A stretch of DNA of 63,921 nt, the filler included, from Atractiella rhizophila (taxonomy: Eukaryota): NCBI GenBank assembly GCA_021432655.1. It is 5 parts of 5 records of this genome, joined end to end, with 100 filler letters (N's around TTAATTAATTAA, not from the genome) between each part and the next. Parts side by side here need not be neighbours in the genome. Positions count along the whole stretch, not along the records: positions 36,748 to 54,851 come from MU271862.1; 4 more parts are not named here. One strand, given 5' to 3'. A program made the position numbers and the translations under genes. Every line of letters starts with the position of its first letter. Within the stretch, counting starts at the first letter, position 1. The notes beneath the pieces were generated by a model, which ran no database searches, had not been told where the DNA came from, and worked only from the letters and a program-made list of their open reading frames with translations. Shown here one piece after another: positions 10,663 through 63,921 of the stretch.

Positions 10663-12601
10663 ATGGGGAGGGAGTTGCAATCTTTGCCATCTGAGCTACT
10701 TCTGAGGGTACTAAGCTATGTCGAAGCTGACGATCTGGTCCGGGTTGGGAGGTTGAATACATTTTGGAATGCGATGGCTGACGATAGGCTGGTGAGTTGT
10801 GCTTCAAAGCTTCAGGGATTGAGGGATATTATTGGAGCGTGGCGGATTTGATATACAAAAGCGCCGTTAGTTGCTCCTAATTGAAGCTGATCCAAAGTGG
10901 CCGCGTTGTGCTGCATATTTTGGCATCAATACCGAGTGGAAAGAAGCAACTTCACTCTCCGAAGGCTATAGTCCTTTCCACGTTTCCTGAAGCATAAACA
11001 CCTTGAGCAACATTGCAATTATCAACTGATTGGCAAGCGCGATGACATAAACCTGTACCAGTTGTGTGATTTGACCAACCAATGGCCGCTTCCTTTGTGT
11101 CGACCTAACCCTTCGTTCAAGCGCAAAGGCTATTAAAAGTCTATGCGCAATTATTCTTATTTCATACTCAACGCAAGCTGATTGTCGGTTCAAGCTTTGG
11201 AAACGGCTTTACCATCAACACTTCCCGCTTACAGTCCTGCGCCGTTCCCTCCTTCCAAACGTCAGCAAGTCAACTTCCCGGTCTTGGAAAACGCTGTACA
11301 AGATTTCTATACGTTGGCGCGCTCTCAAAGCGAAGACATCCTCGGTGTCCCTGTCATCCTACCCCACAGGTCCAAACACCCTGCTCCAGCATTCAGGAGG
11401 TGTTATTTTCACTGCCGCAAAGAAGCACGTTGCTGGACAAGATGGAACATCGAGGATTGGGGTTTGGAACGGGAAAGGGTTGGAGTGTTATGGATATATC
11501 CCATTGGAACAACGGAAGGAAGGAGAGGATATGACGGCACTGCAGGTCGATACTGCCGGGAGCAAGAGCGATGGGTCCCTTCTTCTTGGTGCTTTCTATT
11601 CGACAGGGAGCTTCACTTTGTATTCCGTTCAGCTTGACACTTCCGCGCCAAGCCTTAGGTCGACCGTCGTCTTCCACAGATCGCAGCTCCATGCCCCAAT
11701 CACACAAGTGGCGTTCCACTCTCCTCTTCTGGTCACTCTTGTCTCCTCTGGACGTCTTAACTTCTGGACCGTTGATAAAGGTGGCGATGGATGCTTGAAA
11801 GTGACACCCAATGCAGAAAGCGCGCTCACAGCACCATATCTCGACATGCCTTGCGTACTTTCCCTCACAAGACGGCAGGAACAGTCCTTCGATCTCTCCC
11901 TCGCTTACACTATGCCTTCCTACCCACCTTCCCCGGAATCAGCATACGCCACAACAATGTCAAGTGTGGTGGCTGTTCAGTCATTCACGATCCGTCTGGA
12001 CAAGGAGGGGAGTGCAATTAAGATTGACAGGGACGAGTCTGATTTTTCGGTCTCCATACCTGCTCCGATCGTATACAGCACGTCATCCACCGATGGAAGC
12101 CCTAGTCTGAGGCGGATGAGGGGGAAGAAACGGAAACGGGAGTCAAGCGACTCAGAAGATGGTGACAGAAGAATGCCTCCACCTGCTCCTACCTCAACCT
12201 CACATCCAGCACCACCCCTCTCGACAGGCGTAACTTCCATCACCTTCTCTCCACCGCACATTCTAACCTCCCATTCATCCAACGTCGTCCGTTCATATCT
12301 CGTTCCGTCTGCCCCAGGGCTGTCGACCGGCATCCTCCCTCACACGTCAGTCTCCTACCTTCCATCCCCGTTGCTCTCGCTGTCTTCTTCGACAGAGATG
12401 GAGAAGTGTGTCAGTGGTGGAAAGGATGGGCAGATTCGAGTTTGGGATTTGGGCACCGATGGTGCTGGGATGGTTTTGCAGGAAGAAGGCGAGGAGGTCA
12501 GAGGCAAGATTGTGGAAGTTGGTTTTGATGAGGATCGTATTGTTTGCATCACCGTAGATGAAGAGGATAGAGAGATTCTGAAGGTTTATAGCTTTGAGTA
12601 A
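10663..12601 (+). CDS. F-box / WD40-like protein, two exons
   Basis: Exon 1 is an F-box (LQSLPSELLLRVLSYVEADDLVRVGRLNTFWNAMADDRL); intron 10792-11194; exon 2 continues in frame LWKRLY...WKTLYKISIRWR, with C-terminal WD motif VSGGKDGQIRVWD. Confidence 0.8.
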
Positions 12602-37459: not shown

Positions 37460-38953
37460 CTACCGAATTGTATCGAACAAACTGAAAGGGACCTCTGTTC
37501 TCAGTGACCTCAATTCTCTCTCCAACGGGTGGACTTCAAGCTCTATCCCGTTATCATCACACCATCCGGTGATCCTTGTTATAACTTCATCTTCATCAGT
37601 AACGTGACCCGGTGTGCCTGAATCTTGTTCCACTTTGATAATTTCATGAGAAATACGGAGCTTCTTCAGACCTTCGAAGGATCTTTCTCTTTTTTTTAGG
37701 ACCTCCAAGTAATCCTCCACGATTATAGTGTACACTGTTGGATTTGGCGGGTTCGACAGGTCCGTAATTCGCATGTACCGTTTCGTAAAGAGGCCATGAG
37801 GGAGGCCGTCCCAAGGATGCAATTCTACCACCTGAACAGATGCGGGTAGATTCAATATCATGTCTAGATCGATGTGGTAGGAGGCGAAGGAGAACATCTG
37901 CAACACTCTTGCTTCTTTCCAGCAAGTCTCCAACCCATCCATCAGTGTCGCGATCTTCCTTTCGTTCATCAGCCGATATCCATCTTCAGGCTCATGAAGC
38001 TCCTCGTAAAGGCTCAAATGGAAATGAGTCAGTGTTCGGAAGGTGGAAGCGAGGTTATGGAGACCGATTTGGAGTAGAGGAGAAGTTTCGTTCAGCACGA
38101 GACTGAGATGCGTGAGATCTCGACCAATGGAAGAGAATTGATAGGGGAGGTAGCTGATTAGTAGATCCCCTGAAAGGTGGAGACTTCGTATCTTGGACAG
38201 TAGAGGAGAGTTGGGAAGGAAATCGTAAAGCTCTCGTGATGTTTCGGACGCGATGGGAAGGTACAGCCAGCGCTTTTGCTTCCATACGTCTCCTAGTGCT
38301 AGATTCCTGATTTGAAGCTCCTCAAGGTGCTCAAAACGCCCTAAAACTTCTTCCAGATCTAGTCGAAAAAGAAAGAAGTTCGACAGCATTATACTCCTGA
38401 CTCGGAGCTTCTTCTCGACCATGATTTCGAGCGTGGCTCTAAGCCGATCGCAAAATATTTTTGAAGGAGTGCTTTGCTCAAATCCCACATGCACAATATT
38501 TGGGAACGTATTAAACAGCCTTTCGAGGTGTGGACGAGAGTGTCTCGATCCGTTAAGGCGTGAAAAAGTCAGGCCAAGGACATAGAGTCGCTTAGGTGAG
38601 TTGTTGAGCCTGGATACCCATTGCTCCGCGTGTTGCATATCGCGAACAGTGAGGTGTCGAAATAGGAATCGCTGTACAGGTCTTTGCCATGATCGACATA
38701 TTAGACTAAAAGCAGAGAAGATTTTCGGGCAGCAATGCTGGTGGAGGTAGGATAGAATTTGCCCGATTATCTCGACCGGAAGCTGGGAAAAGGGACTTGT
38801 TTCGACCGTTGGACGACACTGTGGCGCGGCTCGCTTTGTTACAGGTTCAGTAAACTTTCTCGGAAAAGAAAAGGCGAATACCAATTTGCCTCGCTTCCTC
38901 CCCCTTGAAGCACTCTGACTCCGCGTTGAAGGCGCTTTTTTCTTTGGTGGCAT
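37460..38953 (-). CDS. F-box protein with LRR/RNI-like region
   Basis: 497-aa ORF; F-box FSQLPVEIIGQILSYL...SLICRSWQRPVQRFLFRHL; LxxLxL repeats. Confidence 0.75.
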   Translation of the reverse strand: MPPKKKAPSTRSQSASRGRKRGKLVFAFSFPRKFTEPVTKRAAPQCRPTVETSPFSQLPVEIIGQILSYLHQHCCPKIFSAFSLICRSWQRPVQRFLFRHLTVRDMQHAEQWVSRLNNSPKRLYVLGLTFSRLNGSRHSRPHLERLFNTFPNIVHVGFEQSTPSKIFCDRLRATLEIMVEKKLRVRSIMLSNFFLFRLDLEEVLGRFEHLEELQIRNLALGDVWKQKRWLYLPIASETSRELYDFLPNSPLLSKIRSLHLSGDLLISYLPYQFSSIGRDLTHLSLVLNETSPLLQIGLHNLASTFRTLTHFHLSLYEELHEPEDGYRLMNERKIATLMDGLETCWKEARVLQMFSFASYHIDLDMILNLPASVQVVELHPWDGLPHGLFTKRYMRITDLSNPPNPTVYTIIVEDYLEVLKKRERSFEGLKKLRISHEIIKVEQDSGTPGHVTDEDEVITRITGWCDDNGIELEVHPLERELRSLRTEVPFSLFDTIR

Positions 38954-39255
38954 TTGCGTTTGGTGACTCTAAGGAAGAAAAGAATGGAGGGATGCTTGAG
39001 AACGGGTGATAAGTATCTGTTTCACCATTTTGTTGCGGTAAACCGGACAGATATGGTATTGTTGAGCCATTCTATTGTTGACCTTGTTGACAGTTGCTGC
39101 GCCAAGGTTAGCCTTGACATGAACACCCTTGTTACCATTTTTTGTTTGTACCTGAGGTTGAAGCCGTAGAGCACATTTTGATGTCAAATAGATATTGGCG
39201 CACAACAGGCGGAAAATTCTACATTCATTCTATTATATAGCAACAGGTCATAAGT

Positions 39256-41468
<2,213 letters not shown>

Positions 41469-42737
41469 TTAGGGCAAGTCAATGGACCTACTTGAACGCT
41501 CAGATTCATAAAGTTGAATAATATGGAAGCGGAAAACGCAGTTGTGCATCGGAAAACAAGGGAGCTGAACAGGGCTTACCCTGGGCCAGGATCCAGCCAA
41601 GTGAGGAAGGGACAGGAGTGAGTGTTTCAATGCCTCTTGGGTATGTAATTGCGTACAAGGATGCCATGCAGTTGAGAGTTGCTACACAAGAATGTATCTG
41701 GATCTCAGAGAGTCAACTTAGGAGAATGTGTGGGGTGATACTTTACTTCCTTGAGTCTTTATAGTGGAAACAGTCTACTGAGCTGGCTCTTTACAGTATT
41801 CTGTCGTGCATTCTTTTGAACCTTGAATTGACACATTCGGACACTGTTGTGAGATCAATCCACGAACAATGCAATGCTTACAACAGTTCTCAAGAGCTGC
41901 AACGCAATATGTTGTCTACTCCATCTCTCTCTCGCGCCTTTTGATGCTCAAAGTATAAAGTACAAATGGGCAACTGAACTGGACCTGTCAGGTCACGCAT
42001 TGAGGAGAGATATAAATGGGAAATTCGTATGTTCGCCTGATCCCGCCGCGCTGAGCTTCGACGGCTTTCTTTATTATAGTCATCCGAGATTATTAATATA
42101 TGCGCATCCCTTGTCTGCTTTTCTCCCTTTCTTGTTAAGAACATATCTACATCTTGTTAGATTATAATGCAGGCGCAAAGACGTGCTGTCAAATTTGTCC
42201 GTGTACAGTCATGGTTTCAACGGCTGACACCCGTTACATTGCAGTTCAAATTAAATGCAATGCTTACGCGATTGAGCACAGTCGCTTGTTCAAGGCGACC
42301 GCAGGAGCTCCTTGGTTCTCTGCACTGCGAGACCTTTATGCAATGATGGACACCTTGGAACCCACTATTTACTTCACTCAGTTTCTTTTTGTTTTCTGTT
42401 AGAGCGCTCGATTTTGTTCCATGTACGATAGACTGATGCCGTCGCTTGACTAGATTTCTTTTGGTGGAAGGAGACGAATTGGAGGAAGACGAATTAGAAG
42501 AAGACCAATTACAAAAAGGGGAAGGCACGAACGCGCTCCAATTGCATATACCGGGCAACGAGGGATCACAAGGAGGATCCGACGATGCGATGGTTTTGAC
42601 GCCAGAAAGCGCCATTGAAACAGAAGTACGCCTGCTCCTCGTCTCAAAATACACTAACTCTGCTTGCCCAGCTCCTTAGCAAGGAACATAAATCGACCGG
42701 AGCCGACAACGACATTAGGACTGTGGGCACAACCAAA

Positions 42738-44992
42738 ATGGGAGATCAAGGGTCCTGGGAGTCCACTACCAGACCAGCCGGGGACGGTTCCGATGAAGCT
42801 TTACGAACTACGGGATGGAGGTCTACGCCGTCTCGAGATCAAACTGATGGATGGGGAGCAACTGGCGAATCATCCCCAAACAAGATGGAAGATCCCGCAG
42901 CTGCAAAGTCTCGGGAAGACAAGACGTCGTCCCAGGCAGTGTCCGCTCGATCAGGTTGGGGAAGCTCTGACACTGGCGCGGTTTGGGCAGCGGCGACGAG
43001 CACCTCTTCCAATTTGAACCTTGAGCCTGATGATGACTTTGGCGGATGGGGTACTCCGTCGAACTCACAGTCCGGCTCAGGTATTAGGTCTGTTCCCAAC
43101 AGAACTACAGCAGCCAATGGCGAACCTCTGGTTAATGCGAGAACATGGGGTTCCGAAGCTCCAAAAACCTTTAGGGCAGACTCCCTCTTACCTTCGCTCG
43201 AGACCAACGGCTTGAGTAGTACGGCCCAGACGACCTCCTCTCCTACGACTACGCCTTCGAGACAGGAATCAAGTGTACTAAAGGAGCCGTCTACTACCTC
43301 TATGAATGCGGTTCCTTCATCAGTCTCCGTTGCAGACAGCATTCCTCCTGCAGCCGATGTGGTGATGGAAGACCACAGCATCACGACAGCGGCCAGTTTT
43401 AACCGCGATCCTACGAGCTGGCTTCCTGTCTCTGTGTGAGTGTACTGATTGTTAACGTGCATAAGTGAAGCTAAACGGTGGGGTAGAGAAGAAAGGGATT
43501 TGCTTATTCGCTTAGGAAGTGTTCGAAGCGAAATTGAAAAGTTATTACCGATCTATTTAGACGGTCTGTTTCGTCCCTGTGCCTTCCGCTCCGAAAACTG
43601 ATTAGTTATCGTAGAGGAAGCAGCCCGACGACAGATGGAGAAACTTCTTGGAATATCGTTGGGTAATGCAGACTCATCTCGAAGGCGCTGCAGGAGAAAA
43701 ATAAAGGAATTAAAGGGGCAGCTGGAGGCCATTCTCAAAGCTGCGGACGACGTCAAACCCGGACTGTCATCCATCATGCTGGAGGTTGTTGGCGCTCTCC
43801 CGGGTTATGTGCAAGAGATGCCTACAATCGTCTCAAAACCACGCCAAGCAGAGGTACAACGACCGGATGGTATTACCCTTCAGCAAGAGAAGCTCGCCGT
43901 TTCCACAAATTCATGGGCATCCACCTCTGCCGCGCCATCGACTCGTCAAAAGGTCAACGACCAGACTTGGGGCTCTGTGGCAATGTCAGATCGAGCTCAA
44001 CCCTCAACCTCATGCTGGAATGACAATCAGTCGCCGAGACGGAGGCAAGACAGTGGATTCACTAGCAGCGGTGTTGGAGATTTGCAATCACGCTCGACTG
44101 ATGAGCACGCTGAGCTTTTTGTCAAATCGCTGCCTTACACTGCAACGGAGGAATCACTTCAGACTTTCATTTCCTCTAAATTTGGCGGGCTGAGGTCTGT
44201 TAGAATGCCCCTTGACCGTGAAACAGGTGTGTAACTGCCGTCCGTGGTAGGAGTTGTTATTGCTAATAGAATCTGCAGGGAAGCACAAAGGCTTTGGTTT
44301 CCTGGAATTTAGAGACCGTCAGAGTGCCGAGGCCGTTCTTGAGGCTCATGCAAATGGTCCTCTTTCTCTAGATGGTCGGCAACTCCAGTTCAATTTCAGG
44401 TGCGTCGTTATCCTCCAGTATCCGAAGGGTCCAACCGCGCATCAACAGCCAGGGAGGTGCCGGAGGACGGGGTAGAGGTCGAGGTCGAGGTCGTGATTAT
44501 GGGAGTCGAGATTTTTCAAGTCGACGGAATTCTGGTTCGACGTCCGCTACTGGATGGAGCGCTGGTGGTGGGGGAGGGGATACTGCTCCGCGGGATTCAG
44601 GTTCCTCCGGCTGGGGACCTTCATCGTTGTCGCGTACATCCGTCAGCGTTCAAAATGCTCAAGGAGATGGCGGCTGGGGTCCGACGACTACTACACAGGT
44701 CAAGACTACTGATTCGGCTTCAAATGGCGGTTGGGGACCTTCTACATCTTCGAATTTTGTCAGCGCCCCTACACGCTCCTCTACCGCAAATGATGATGGA
44801 GGCTGGGGGATGCCAGCTGCTGCTACAAAGGATGATGGGGGTTGGGGGATGCCGGCTGCTACTACAAAGGATGATGGAGGCTGGGGGACGCCAGTTGCTA
44901 CTACAAAGGATGATGGGGGTTGGGGGATGCCAACTTCTACCAGCCATGTTGGAGAAAGTAGCGGCGGAGTTCAGGACACCGGAGGGTGGTAG
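42738..44992 (+). CDS. GW/WG-repeat, RRM and RG-repeat protein
   Basis: Disordered N- and C-termini with many GWG/WG motifs; RRM with ELFVKSLP (RNP2) and KGFGFLEF (RNP1); GRGRGRGRGR. Confidence 0.8.
44792..44932 (+). repeat. 39-bp coding tandem repeat, about 3.6 copies (DDGGWGMPAAATK)
   Basis: Units start at 44792, 44831, 44870 and 44909. Confidence 0.92.
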
Positions 44993-53932: not shown

Positions 53933-54851
53933 CTACTTGGGAAATGTAGCATCACGTAAAACCACTAAGCGCACATCCAAAGCGTGACACACACTTTCAA
54001 GACTTTCCAACTTGAGCTCCTTCCTGGCGTCACGACGAGGGCCCTTATCACCAGAAACAAGAGTGATCTCTTTAATCAGCTTCTTGCCTCTTAATATTAG
54101 CTCCTCCGCGAACATTGCGCTCGTCTGGGGCATCGCTTCAATCTCCAACGTCTCCAAACCGTCTGGAAGCCTTTGAAACAGAGCTCGTGTGTAGCTCATC
54201 CTTCCACATTTCAGCCTTCTGACCTTCGGCACGTCGAGGATGAGATTGTCCATCGCTGGCGTGGTAGAGTAGGGGTTCGAGGCGAAGGTAAACTCTTCGA
54301 GGTTGTGCAGCTGGCGTAGAGCGAGTCGAAAGTCATGTGTCAGCGAATTGCCAGTCAAGACAGGCAACATGGCGAGGCGAGCGAGGTGGAGGCGCAAAAG
54401 TGTGCTTCTGCAGGCATGAAGAATCGTTGCTAAGATGGGGGTAACGGCGTAGTCTGTCCAAGTGAGGCGTTGGAGAGGAGCTGTTGGGTTATATGAGAGA
54501 GAAGGAGGAAGATTGATCCTGGTGACTGAAAGTTTTTGGAGGTTTGGAAGAGCAAGGCAGTAACCCAAAAGGTTCGTTGAATTGATGAATTCTTTGCGAT
54601 GCTGGAACCCAGTCTCGTCCAAGGAGATCTCGAGCAGATTCTGTGAGAGGGATCGCATGAGCTTGACACAGACATCTTGTTCGATCCCTCGCTTGAAATG
54701 TAGCGTCCGGACGTTAGGGCAAATAGCTAACACACTTTGCCACCTAGAGAGGTGGGCCTCATCCAGTTGATCCAATGGTCTCGGCCCTAGAGAAACGGAA
54801 GATACCCAATGTGTGAGGTAGATCCTACTTTCTAAGGTAGCAGCAAGCTTG
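53933..54851 (-). CDS. LRR/RNI-like (probably F-box) protein, interrupted by spacer
   Basis: 280-aa ORF with CPNVRTLHF, LPNLQKLSV, LHNLEEFTF repeats; a possible N-terminus lies at 54952-55069 across the gap. Confidence 0.6.
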
Positions 54852-54951
54852 NNNNNNNNNNNNNNNNNNNNNNNNNNNNNNNNNNNNNNNNNNNNTTAAT
54901 TAATTAANNNNNNNNNNNNNNNNNNNNNNNNNNNNNNNNNNNNNNNNNNNN
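54852..54951. other. Assembly spacer with TTAATTAATTAA
   Basis: Same 100-bp linker. Confidence 0.95.
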
Positions 54952-58360: not shown

Positions 58361-58953
58361 GGTGGCTAGGATTACATTTGGTCACACCTATCACCTTCCC
58401 CCTCCTCCAGACCACAATTTTCACCCTCCTACACTCAAATTTCGCTCAATTTCGATGATCAGAACAGATTTGTGACCCTCAAACGTTCCTTTACCACCTT
58501 AGAAGGTTTCTGCCTACTCAGGAATCAAGAAATATCAAAATCTATCACCTTACCACCCATCTCCTGCTTCAAAACGCACTTTGCTGCCCTGGACTCAAAC
58601 TTTGACGAATTTGGACGTTATAGGGCTTATTTTGATCGTGAAACACTGCGCTACAACTTTACTAGGAACCATCTTGGTCACAATAAGCGAAAATTTCGAG
58701 ATAGCCACTCCATCACCTCCTTCATACCCCCAAAACGCATTTTTCGACTTTTTGAAGTCAGATCTGGTTTGATCTGGACAATTTTATTGCCATTGAATTC
58801 ACAATAGGCTATTCTACTATCCTACAACAGATCACCTTGATCAGAAGACTCAAAATTTCGAAATTTGCCACCATCACATCACACACATCAGCCTCTACCT
58901 CCTTTCTCCATCACACCAGTGCATCTTAGGACTCAACCACAGGGTCTAGGAGG

Positions 58954-61900
58954 ATGTTTGGGATGGAAATGGCTCTTAATGGGTTGGAATTTGCTGGGCT
59001 GAACAGTCTTGCTGCAGCAAATGATGTCACTATGCCTCAAGCAAGCCTTGAGTGGATAGCAGACACTGGTGCAACTTCCCACATGTCTCCCCATCGTCAT
59101 TGGTTCAGAACCTATCAGAAGAAGGTCATTCCTATCAGGGTAGCAAGTGGAGAAGTGATTTGGAGTGCTGGAATTGGCAGCTTGATCTTTGAAGCCAAGT
59201 TGGGGGAGAAGAAGACCACCACCATTACCATTTCAGATGTCCTACATGTCCCCAAGCTCTGGAACAACCTCCTGTCAGTCTTCAGGCTCACCATCTACAA
59301 AGGAATGAGGGTCTCCATCAAGCACAACAAGGTTCTCTTCTTCCAGCATCAAAAACTCTGCCTTACTGCCACTGTGGACTACAAGAATGGAAGCATGGCT
59401 GGGATACTTGATGGGAACACCCTTCCTGCTCCAGAATTCGCTGGGAATGCTTCTACACTGCCCATGGATGCTTCTCTATGGCACAGGAGACTTGGACACC
59501 TGAATTATGAGGACATCAAGCGTCTGAAGAGGAAGGAACTTGTGAATGGGATGATTTTTGGACCTAGAGGATGATCCAGACCCTATTTGCGAGCCATGCC
59601 TAGCTGGGAAGCAGCATAGGGTCTTCAACAAGTCAGCAGAGACCAGGGAGAAGGAAGTACTGGGTAGGATCAGCTCAGACCTGCATGGACCTCTTCCAGT
59701 CACTTCCAGAGAAGGATATCGATATTGGGTCACCTTCATCGATGAAGCAACAAATCATTGCACAATTGCTTCCTCAAGAAGAAATCAGAGGCCCCAGAAC
59801 TCTTCAAGACCTTCAAGAATTGGGTAGAGAATGTTACTGGGAAGAAGATCAAGAAGTTTAGAGAGGACAAGGAAGGCGCTTATTCCTCTAAGGAATTCGA
59901 TCAATACCTCAAGGCCTGTGGTATTCAGCGCGAACAGACGATCAGGAACTCTCCTCACCAGAATGGCAGGGCAGAACGAGCCAATAGGACGATTCAGGAG
60001 ACTATGGTCGCCATGTTTGAAGAATCAGGTCTTCCTCTCTTTCTCTGGCCATCTATCGCTTCAGCAGTTGTCCACATTCGCAACAGATCTCCCTCAGCTT
60101 CGATCAACCATGCTATTCCCCACACAAAACTCACTGGACTTACTCCAACCATCTCAAGATTCAGAATCATTGGATGCACTGCCTACGTTCAAGTTCAGAA
60201 GGATGAAAGGCCACACAGCTTAGGATCTCATACACGAAAATGCGCATTTATAGGCTATTCCCTTGCAGCGAAAGGGTGGGAGTTCTGGGATCCTGTTGGA
60301 AAGAAGGTCTACATTCGAGATGTTGCCAGATTTGACGAGAGAGAGATGCTCTGCAAGGTTAGGAAGGAGAAGATTATGTTGGAAGAGCCACAGGGACCAC
60401 TTGATGAGTGGAGGGAGCATCAGGATCAGGTGGGAGATGGACAGAATAATGCTCCAGCCGCTCCTCCAGCCAGGATATCGCTAGACGACAATGAAGAAGA
60501 AGAAGAAGGATGGACTCGACAGCCAGAAGCACCACCTACACCTCAGGGAACAACCCAGACCCCTTGCAATACAGTCTCCAAATCGATTTCAGCCCCTTCA
60601 GGCCGAAGAAGAAGAAGAAGAAGAAGAAAGAGAGCCATCTCCAGATCTGCTANNNNNNNNNNNNNNNNNNNNNNNNNNNNNNNNNNNNNNNNNNNNNNNN
60701 NNTAGGACACCACCTCGTCAGTACACCATGCAGAGAGATCCTTGGACAGGAGTTCACATGCCTAGATTCTCAGAGTCTCCGGATCCGCTCCAGATCCGTC
60801 CAACAACACCAGATCGACCTCCTCCAGCAGCTTCGACACCTCCCCCTGTCACCAGGCCTTCAACAAATTATTCTACGAGTAGAGGACGACCTGTTGACAG
60901 ATTTAGGACCCCAGAAGCGCCTCAAAACAACGACAAAGGGTCGACAGACAAGCTTGGGATGTCGGTAAAGGAATGTGACATCCTCACCGAGCCAGAGGCG
61001 ATGGAATATTGTTAGTTGTAGCGTGTTGTTTTGGTCATCTGCCTAGTATGACTCATATGAGTCATCACTATGTAGTTTAGTTCTGCCTAGGAGTGTTGGT
61101 CATTATTGACCACCAACTACTCCTAGCCTTAGATCCCTACAAATATGGCTATATGCTTGTCACAGAGCATGCCAAGAGTGCAGCAACAGGAGTAGAGGTC
61201 CCTCAGTCATATTCAAGAACGATGGCAAGCCCTAATGCAAAGGAATGGCATGAAGCAACAGTGAAGGAGATTCAATCTCACTTGGACAACAAGAGTTGGA
61301 TTCTGGTCAAACCGCCTAAAGGTGCAAAAATCATTGGTTCTCGATGGGTGTTTGCGGTTAAGAAGAAGTCAGATGGTTCTATTGAGCGCTTCAAGGCCAG
61401 ATTCGTCATCAAGGGGTTCTCTCAACGCCCTGGTTCGACTACTTTGATACTTTCACATCTACAGTCAAATGGGCGACACTTACGACGATTCTTTCACTCG
61501 CTTGTGTCTTGGACATGGAGTTGGAGTCAGTGGATATCTCTACGGCATTCCTCAACAGCAATATGGATGCAGAGGTCTATGCACAACAACCAGAAGGACA
61601 TCCACAGGGTCCTCCAGAGTACGTTCTCAAGCTAATCAAGGCCATCTATGGCACAAGGCAAGGAGGACGTCAATGGCAGAAGAAACTCGATAAGGAACTC
61701 ATTGATATGGGATTTAAGAAGATCAAGAGCGACTCTAGTCTGTAGATTTACTCGAAGGGGGACATCAAAGTGCTTGTCCCAGTCTTTGTGGATGATATTA
61801 CGATCGCTAGCACATCAAAGGGTGCTGTAGAGGACTTTAAGAGAGAGTTGGGGAAACGATTCAAGCTCAGAGACCGTGGACCAACGGAATTCCTACTTGG

Positions 61901-63142: not shown

Positions 63143-63921
63143 TTATCGCTTCCCTCCTCTAACTTTTCCTCTTCCTCTCCCTCCTCCACCTCTCCCTCGG
63201 CCTCTTGATCCTCTAGCCATCTTCCTATCCCAATCCCTCATGCTTTCTTTGTTATTTTCCTTACTCCTCGAATTATTGCTCTTCCCACCGAACCCATACT
63301 TATCGTCTCTCTTCTTCCTTGATAAACCACCTCTTCCACCACCTCCCCTTCCACGGTCTGAATTTGGTTTACCGCGTTTCGAAGGACGGTCGAAAGTCTT
63401 TTCGAGCTCAACATCGAAGTCTTCATCGCCTCCAGTAGCGCCAGCAAGGTCGGTGCCCTTCCGCTTCCGCTTCAACTCCTTAACGCGATCAGTGAACGCC
63501 TTCTTTTCCGATTGTCGCTCCTGCAATACGAAACATGGACCATGAGTACACAACGGACTAGACGATGAGGAGGAGGGGAAGAAAAGAGAAAGGAAAGACG
63601 GACCTTCTCTTTCGCCTTCTGAACCTCCTTCCCAAACTTCTTCGCCATCCTCAACCTCTTCGCCTCCTCGCTCCTCTTCACCCCTTCTTTCTCCTCCTCC
63701 AACCTCCTCCTCACCTTCCCCATCTGTACATCCGTCTTAACCATCTCCGCAAAGAAGTCGTCCGGTCTAGTGAACGGGATGTCTTGCTCTTTGCACAGCT
63801 GTCGACCAGCTAGAGCTCCGGCTAGAGAGGCGCGGTAGAAGGAGAGTTCCCGGGCGAGGTCATCGTCGACGGATAGGTTGGGTGGCAAGGCGGAGGAGGA
63901 TGTGAGGATGTGGGTATCCCG
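63143..63921 (-). CDS. EBP2: rRNA-processing protein Ebp2, 5' part outside window
   Basis: VDDDLARELSFY, PFTRPDDFFAEMVKTD, KKFGKEVQ, KRDDKYGFGGK. Confidence 0.92.

Follow-up and report, generated by a model that had tools for sequence, protein, structure and literature searches.

Does a gene of the root-associated fungus Atractiella rhizophila, in which glycine-flanked tryptophans accompany an RRM, encode a partner of Argonaute, or do its tryptophans serve another purpose or none? The gene lies in a window of 63,921 nucleotides, by which we mean the whole stretch of DNA that was analysed, joined from five parts of assembly GCA_021432655.1. A first-pass annotation of positions 42738–44992 had proposed a candidate Argonaute-hook adaptor, a proposal of some interest since few fungal species have known Argonaute partners; if the C-terminal arm of the protein binds Argonaute, it would offer, in a fungus that lives in association with roots, a short hook that can be tested at low cost. 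The surprise would be limited, as unrelated proteins have acquired GW arms on many occasions.

The window consists of fungal, intron-rich DNA, and the gene (termed the GW gene here) is located on the plus strand between a divergent adenylosuccinate synthetase gene (PF00709, ADE12) and RPL31 (PF01198), housekeeping neighbours that give no hint to its function. The GW gene is transcribed and spliced. Contigs from the public run X2 skip five coding introns with GT..AG ends (42626–42671, 43436–43486, 43564–43614, 44227–44278 and 44400–44448), the removal of which produces a single open frame ending at the stop codon at 44992. The splice evidence stems from this one run, whose sample kind is not on record, neither X2 nor a second run, X1, being registered as RNA; the coverage of the GW gene in X1 is confined to 43728–44008. 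An artefact or shadow frame was considered and rejected on account of the skipped introns and of the RRM, which is regained only through splicing.

The start codon first assigned at 42738 is an in-frame ATG, but the frame continues upstream via the spliced intron 42626–42671 into an acidic exon (42454–42625) that is supported by X2 splicing and is also present in the NCBI model P0001 (A. rhizophila hypothetical protein BT69DRAFT_1351457, KAH8921677.1). Candidate in-frame ATGs at 41523, 42016, 42590 (within the acidic exon) and 42738 would give rise to proteins of 794, 766, 717 and 683 residues, respectively. The first of these would open a possible first coding exon on the plus strand (41523–41617) that has the donor GTGAGT at 41618, is in frame with 42454 and matches the N-terminus of P0001; a junction from donor 41618 to 42454 is absent among the X2 joints listed. 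The second would open an alternative short first coding exon on the same strand (42016–42026, donor GTATGT at 42027), from which the numbering of the 766-residue form starts. A low-depth X2 contig links this region to 42454, but it carries other letters at the ATG. Alternative low-depth X2 joints between 41700 and 42453 (41729, 41733, 41845 and 41848 to about 41895, and about 42026 to 42454) suggest a long leader, variably spliced, which the GW gene shares with the upstream region of the divergent ADE12. Within the long first intron of the GW gene, six-frame translation alone brings up a possible short two-exon frame at 42168–42403 (ATG 42168, intron at about 42184–42244), where X2 contig cover is almost nil.

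Other features of the window were recorded alongside. Ty1/copia-type pol fragments, broken by stops and an assembly gap, extend over 58930–61635 on the plus strand with matches to Pol_BBD, gag_pre-integrase and a retroviral SH3 domain. Three genes are of F-box type, at 37460–38968 (minus strand), 11075–12601 (plus strand) and 53933–54895 (minus strand), the assignments being based on an F-box-like match, on a Pof12-type beta-propeller and on an open reading frame without Pfam match that appears F-box/LRR-like by eye. The minus strand at 63143–63736 encodes the rRNA-processing protein EBP2, whose C-terminal tail is rich in RGG.

All parts of the GW protein are encoded on the plus strand. An N-terminal disordered arm (42738–43154) with seven tryptophans, five of which adjoin glycine, is followed by a Ser/Thr/Pro-rich spacer without tryptophan (43155–43415) and by an orphan helical domain of about 100 residues (43416–43814) that is split by introns 43436–43486 and 43564–43614. 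A disordered linker with three tryptophans (SW, TWG and CW; 43815–44105, WG/GW score -0.5) leads to a single canonical RRM (44106–44449), split by introns 44227–44278 and 44400–44448, and the RRM is directly followed by a (GR)5 box (44465–44494), which is present as first described. The C-terminal WG/GW arm (44528–44992) contains nine tryptophans, each with a glycine before it, and includes a 39-nucleotide tandem repeat of 3.9 copies (44787–44940) that encodes a 13-residue unit with the motif DDGGWG. In an AlphaFold2 model computed without alignment, 618 of 774 residues (about 80%) have a pLDDT below 50, and the two ordered parts are the helical domain and the RRM.

A chain with such a large low-confidence portion could also be that of a generic ribonucleoprotein-granule protein, in which the tryptophans would act as low-affinity stickers in a Gly/Ser/Thr spacer while the RRM and the RG box contact RNA, with no specific docking of Argonaute. 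In the granule scaffolds known from fungi and animals, the stickers are mostly tyrosine and phenylalanine. The 390 residues of arms and linker, however, contain 22 aromatics, of which 19 are tryptophan, three are phenylalanine and none is tyrosine, and 13 of the 19 tryptophans come after glycine (17 after G, S or T), a composition that speaks against a granule protein of this kind, which we hold to be rather unlikely.

The motifs named in the first-pass annotation (DGWG, SGWG, FGGWG, two TWG, SSGWG, DGGWG and a terminal GGW-stop at 44992) are all found in the spliced plus-strand frame, DGGWG occurring five times and in four of these cases as DDGGWG inside the tandem repeat. The 683-residue form contains 20 tryptophans, 15 of them with a glycine neighbour, and ten GWG. 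The initial count of more than 15 GW/WG motifs is correct for dipeptides (13 GW and 12 WG), whereas the glycine-adjacent tryptophans, counted singly, number exactly 15. Since at least 15 glycine-adjacent tryptophans were reached in none of 10,000 whole-protein shuffles (mean 4.5, maximum 12), the motifs are not a product of chance. In the C arm, the pattern of nine out of nine tryptophans after glycine was equalled by none of 20,000 within-arm shuffles; in the N arm, 193 of 20,000 shuffles reached the observed five out of seven, which is marginal. Four of the nine C-arm motifs derive from the one 39-nucleotide repeat, the copy number of which differs between alleles, as would be expected if this were a young gene encoding an RRM protein whose low-complexity tail is incidental, having grown by recent tandem duplication, and whose tryptophans have no selected function. 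Yet after removal of three repeat units all six remaining C-arm tryptophans still follow glycine, a value as high in only two of 20,000 shuffles, and we regard an incidental tail as quite improbable.

WG/GW scoring was performed with the dos composition score alone, re-implemented from the table and extension rule of a plant study that also describes a second filter, ics, of at most 2.14 (PMC2910046). The score, which employs a plant-trained matrix and a cut-off of 6.99, was computed untrimmed because the study's own table shows mostly negative values. With it, the C arm reaches 88.0 in the window and 78.4 in P0001, while the N arm reaches 12.9 in the window and -6.3 and -9.0 in P0001. The six frames of the window contain 103 WG/GW-seeded stretches, two of which exceed the cut-off, both in the GW gene. 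The prediction therefore covers the C arm in both alleles and the N arm in the window only, and of the GW-rich arms described at first on both sides, the C-terminal one is convincing and the N-terminal one weak. The C-arm value is in the range of the Argonaute-hook protein SDE3 (74.5) and in the "medium" class of 25–150, although Arabidopsis glycine-rich proteins of the oleosin and cupredoxin types, for which a role in silencing is not evident, also pass the same score (PMC2910046). Successive C-arm tryptophans are 19, 21, 19, 24, 13, 13, 13 and 22 residues apart (range 13–24), in agreement with the TNRC6 Argonaute sites, where paired tryptophans are separated by ten residues or more (PMC9262622). 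Hence, composition score, small polar flanks and tryptophan spacing give the C arm the sequence features of an Argonaute hook.

The presence of one RRM, as first proposed, is borne out by a match to Pfam PF00076 with an E value of 1e-14 on the second allele P0001, and both signature motifs are intact (RNP2 LFVKSL, RNP1 KGFGFLEF); the protein contains no RGG triplet. Canonical RRMs bind RNA, and by this established knowledge the RRM of the GW protein would be expected to do so as well. Its nearest relatives are nucleolin/Nsr1-like and Mrd1-like RRMs with 35–43% identity. The best matches are two-RRM nucleolin-like proteins with an RRM before a Gly/Arg tail (P0015, 43% over 79 residues) and Mrd1-type RRMs (P0007, 43% over 81 residues), and the best PDB sequence match is nucleolin. 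These relationships lend some weight to the granule alternative, within which the RRM and RG box may have descended, with divergence, from the final RRM and the Gly/Arg tail of a protein of the Nsr1/nucleolin type. Against it stands the observation that none of the 14 RRM relatives compared has more than two glycine-adjacent tryptophans.

The central helical segment pointed out in the first-pass annotation is recovered by AlphaFold2 as helices with pLDDT values of 66–82, the rest of the model being of low confidence, and the domain modelled alone from its single sequence forms four helices with a mean pLDDT of 69. A Pfam scan up to an E value of 10 assigned it to no family. Fold searches returned generic helical hairpins only, the best of them an unrelated hairpin with a Z score of 8.2; Foldseek gave no match at E 0.001 for the domain against the PDB and viral models, and for the whole model it returned RRMs only, none at E 0.001. 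The best PDB sequence match of the domain had an E value of 0.037, and the ESM Atlas contained no usable feature match. From these results neither novelty of the fold nor membership in a family can be concluded. Among 1.84 billion representatives, the domain matched three sequences, of which one was the domain itself, one a repetitive insect protein of SMC-like type, rejected as a relative since it represents a coiled-coil chance match, and one a fish protein with five Myb/SANT-like repeats, to which the match is weak (E 1.3e-4). A profile built from the fish repeats scores the domain at 15.4 bits, compared with a maximum of 8.5 for scored shuffles, in a test that is circular. Agreement with the fish repeats extends to the first tryptophan and the stretch CRxKIKxLK but to none of four other aromatic positions, and the Myb/SANT-like family PF13837 yielded no match up to E 10 in a search in which the HMMER filters drop most matches above 0.1. 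The fish protein is a weak lead, and we consider a Myb/SANT-like identity of the helical domain unlikely.

Comparison with P0001 adds evidence on constraint. The two proteins share 697 of 749 aligned residues (93%), and P0001, which is annotated as hypothetical only, is evidently the same gene from another strain or haplotype. It differs from the window protein in its predicted N-terminus, in having one 13-residue repeat fewer and in containing 12 rather than 15 glycine-adjacent tryptophans. The alleles differ at one of 81 residues in the RRM and at three of 99 in the helical domain, that is, at 4 of 180 residues in the folded parts, whereas the disordered N-terminal part has 36 differences in 305 residues (Fisher p 1e-4); thus, the gene is under constraint. 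The C-terminal disordered parts, with 12 differences in 264 residues and one repeat unit, also vary less than the N-terminal one (p 0.002), so that the folded parts and the C-terminal half are more tightly held than the N arm, in which 18 of 139 residues differ and one GWG tryptophan is a cysteine in P0001. This asymmetry is not expected of an incidental tail, nor is it expected that the four repeat units differ only silently in their DDGGWG cores, although no more than two codons vary there. On the other hand, 18 of the 32 exonic base differences listed change a residue (41 further differences exist beyond those), which favours an incidental tail, and the variation in repeat number and in a single tryptophan would be expected of a granule protein in which only total valence counts. 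The tryptophans themselves, kept at 18 of 19 aligned positions, show no detectable conservation beyond the average of all positions.

The exon at 42672–43022 occurs in two versions in run X2, with 29 differences in 351 bases and 5 differences in 328 bases, respectively. Some of the differences listed agree with P0001, while others are found in neither sequence, so that two or more haplotypes or strains are present; between them, the N arm is strongly divergent.

The claim that the protein is lineage-specific agrees with searches of protein clusters, representatives (with the helical domain only), metagenome contigs and the ESM Atlas, none of which returned an ortholog. The protein searches covered 5.8 billion clusters by a word-based method that is weak for low-complexity arms. 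Exon 43617–44225 had one match among 2298 candidates when compared with longer proteins, which was P0001; the RRM with the C arm had 11 matches among 8000 scored candidates of similar length, the ten other than P0001 being RRM-only; and the RRM had four matches among 454 shorter proteins, again RRM-only. Of 198 pattern matches in metagenome contigs none was confirmed, a further search confirmed three of 59, all of them short RRM-only matches of 27–32% identity, and the best feature score in the ESM Atlas was 0.80, from generic RRM clusters. No paralog of the GW gene is located inside the window. The lack of a homolog outside the species among the collections searched is a further point that a young gene with an incidental tail would account for. 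A literature search lying mostly outside subscription journals found no report on the GW protein itself or on a GW Argonaute partner in Pucciniomycotina (rusts and kin), and among 30 of the 71 papers that name Atractiella none deals with RNAi by its title. A survey of 12 Pucciniomycotina genomes, in whose main text Atractiella is not named, reported RNAi genes in every one of them (PMC12210899), and four-way averages of two to three Argonautes per genome have been given for this group (PMC4290597).

Our main reading, to which we assign a probability of roughly 45%, is that the GW protein is a lineage-specific RNA-binding adaptor whose C-terminal arm recruits Argonaute. As a single-copy adaptor it would hold RNA through its RRM and the adjoining (GR)5 box, while the nine glycine-flanked tryptophans of the floppy C arm would insert into the tryptophan pockets of the PIWI domain of a putative host Argonaute. 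A single adaptor molecule could thereby bring several Argonautes close to the RNA that it holds, in the manner of a P-body or a silencing complex, where the protein might localise and take part in the silencing of transposons or viruses, and the helical domain could serve as a protein-contact or self-association module. The reading is held back because the N arm is variable, because the tryptophans are no better kept than the average residue and because fungal Argonautes have "remarkably variable" tryptophan pockets, of which TRP3 alone is distinctly conserved (PMC12477606). If true, it would describe an adaptor able to load Argonaute onto RNA via its own RRM and would test the use of the variable pockets in fungal Argonautes.

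The variable pockets are also one reason for entertaining alternatives, together with two observations from animals: the GW/WG repeats of Drosophila can repress independently of Argonaute1 (PMC2965232), and the C-terminal W-rich region of GW182, which lies past the central domains, binds PAN3, NOT1 and NOT9 rather than Argonaute (PMC4615383). Both observations favour a recruiter of deadenylases, in which the RRM would pick mRNAs and the tryptophans flanked by G, S or T would bind pockets of CCR4-NOT (NOT9/Caf40, NOT1) or PAN3, without Argonaute. The strong arm of the GW protein is C-terminal to the RRM, like the deadenylase-binding region of GW182, nearly all arm and linker tryptophans have the small preceding residues named above, and a canonical RRM would reach RNA without a guide. 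A PAM2-like motif is missing, however, as judged by two sequence patterns, and a fungal example of deadenylase recruitment by tryptophan motifs was not found in the literature searched. We deem a deadenylase recruiter unlikely, slightly more so than a granule protein. The deadenylase and Argonaute readings are inseparable by sequence alone and both may hold; binding of the C arm to CCR4-NOT instead of Argonaute would warn against equating GW arrays with Argonaute hooks. The granule and incidental-tail alternatives, too, can coexist with an Argonaute adaptor.

Several known systems resemble the GW protein in part. The WG/GW Argonaute-hook class, represented in plants by NRPE1, SPT5L/KTF1 and SDE3, shares with it a disordered Gly/Ser/Asp/Thr-rich arm with many glycine-flanked tryptophans. 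Tas3 of S. pombe is a further WG/GW Argonaute-hook protein. Poor conservation in sequence is common to the class and to the GW protein, which by its score would be placed in the medium range, but there is no sequence homology between them and the carrier domains of the GW protein, a single RRM, an RG box and an orphan helical domain, are different. Candidates that combine an RRM with WG motifs have been described before in plants, the RRM protein AT2G33410 being included in the list of WG/GW candidates (PMC2910046).

Animal GW182/TNRC6 proteins show the same order of parts, i.e., a W-containing N arm, a central helical domain, a linker, an RRM and a W-containing C arm. In both, the W arms change faster than the RRM (for GW182, PMC4615383), as any disordered region would do. 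The parallel drawn in the first-pass annotation is nevertheless weaker than stated, since the RRM of GW182 is devoid of the RNP aromatics and no binding of it to RNA is seen (PMC4615383), whereas that of the GW protein is canonical and retains the RNP1 and RNP2 aromatics. Unlike GW182, the GW protein (683–794 residues) possesses an RG box and has its strong GW arm at the C-terminus rather than the N-terminus. Membership in the GW182 family was rejected on the basis of this different type of RRM and of the missing UBA, PAM2 and Q-rich parts: Pfam detected no UBA in the protein (E up to 1) or in its helical domain (E up to 10), PAM2 was found neither by Pfam nor by the two sequence patterns, and there are at most five glutamines in any 30 residues. 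It is very unlikely that the protein is a fungal functional analogue of GW182 of independent origin, with a working RRM, a tryptophan arm bridging Argonaute and deadenylation, and a helical domain that might be a degenerate Myb/SANT tie to chromatin.

Nsr1/Gar2/nucleolin and Mrd1/RBM19 possess the closest RRMs, and the arrangement of RRM followed by Gly/Arg as well as a short acidic N-terminal stretch are shared features. These proteins carry at least two RRMs, in contrast to the one RRM of the GW protein, which has no RGG and bears long tryptophan arms that the relatives compared lack; with one Pfam RRM stretch and no RGG triplet, membership in the Nsr1/nucleolin group was rejected.

The basidiomycete GW/WG proteins Gwo1 (CNAG_00520) and Gwc1 (CNAG_06486) of Cryptococcus neoformans resemble the GW protein in their motifs and are not known to contain an RRM; neither was among the named matches of the protein searches with GW-protein queries. 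Gwo1 is part of a P-body complex with Ago1 (PMC6643885; PMC10402008), and GWC1 and GWO1 are lost or cut in one RNAi-less species (PMC4778953). A further species lacks GWO1 as well, and siRNA profiles stay normal when this gene is deleted (PMC8022950). By analogy, the pairing of Gwo1 with Ago1 provides a basidiomycete precedent for reading the A. rhizophila protein as an Argonaute adaptor, and the protein, with a function suggested by its motifs, is a fair candidate for a known class that has evolved repeatedly.
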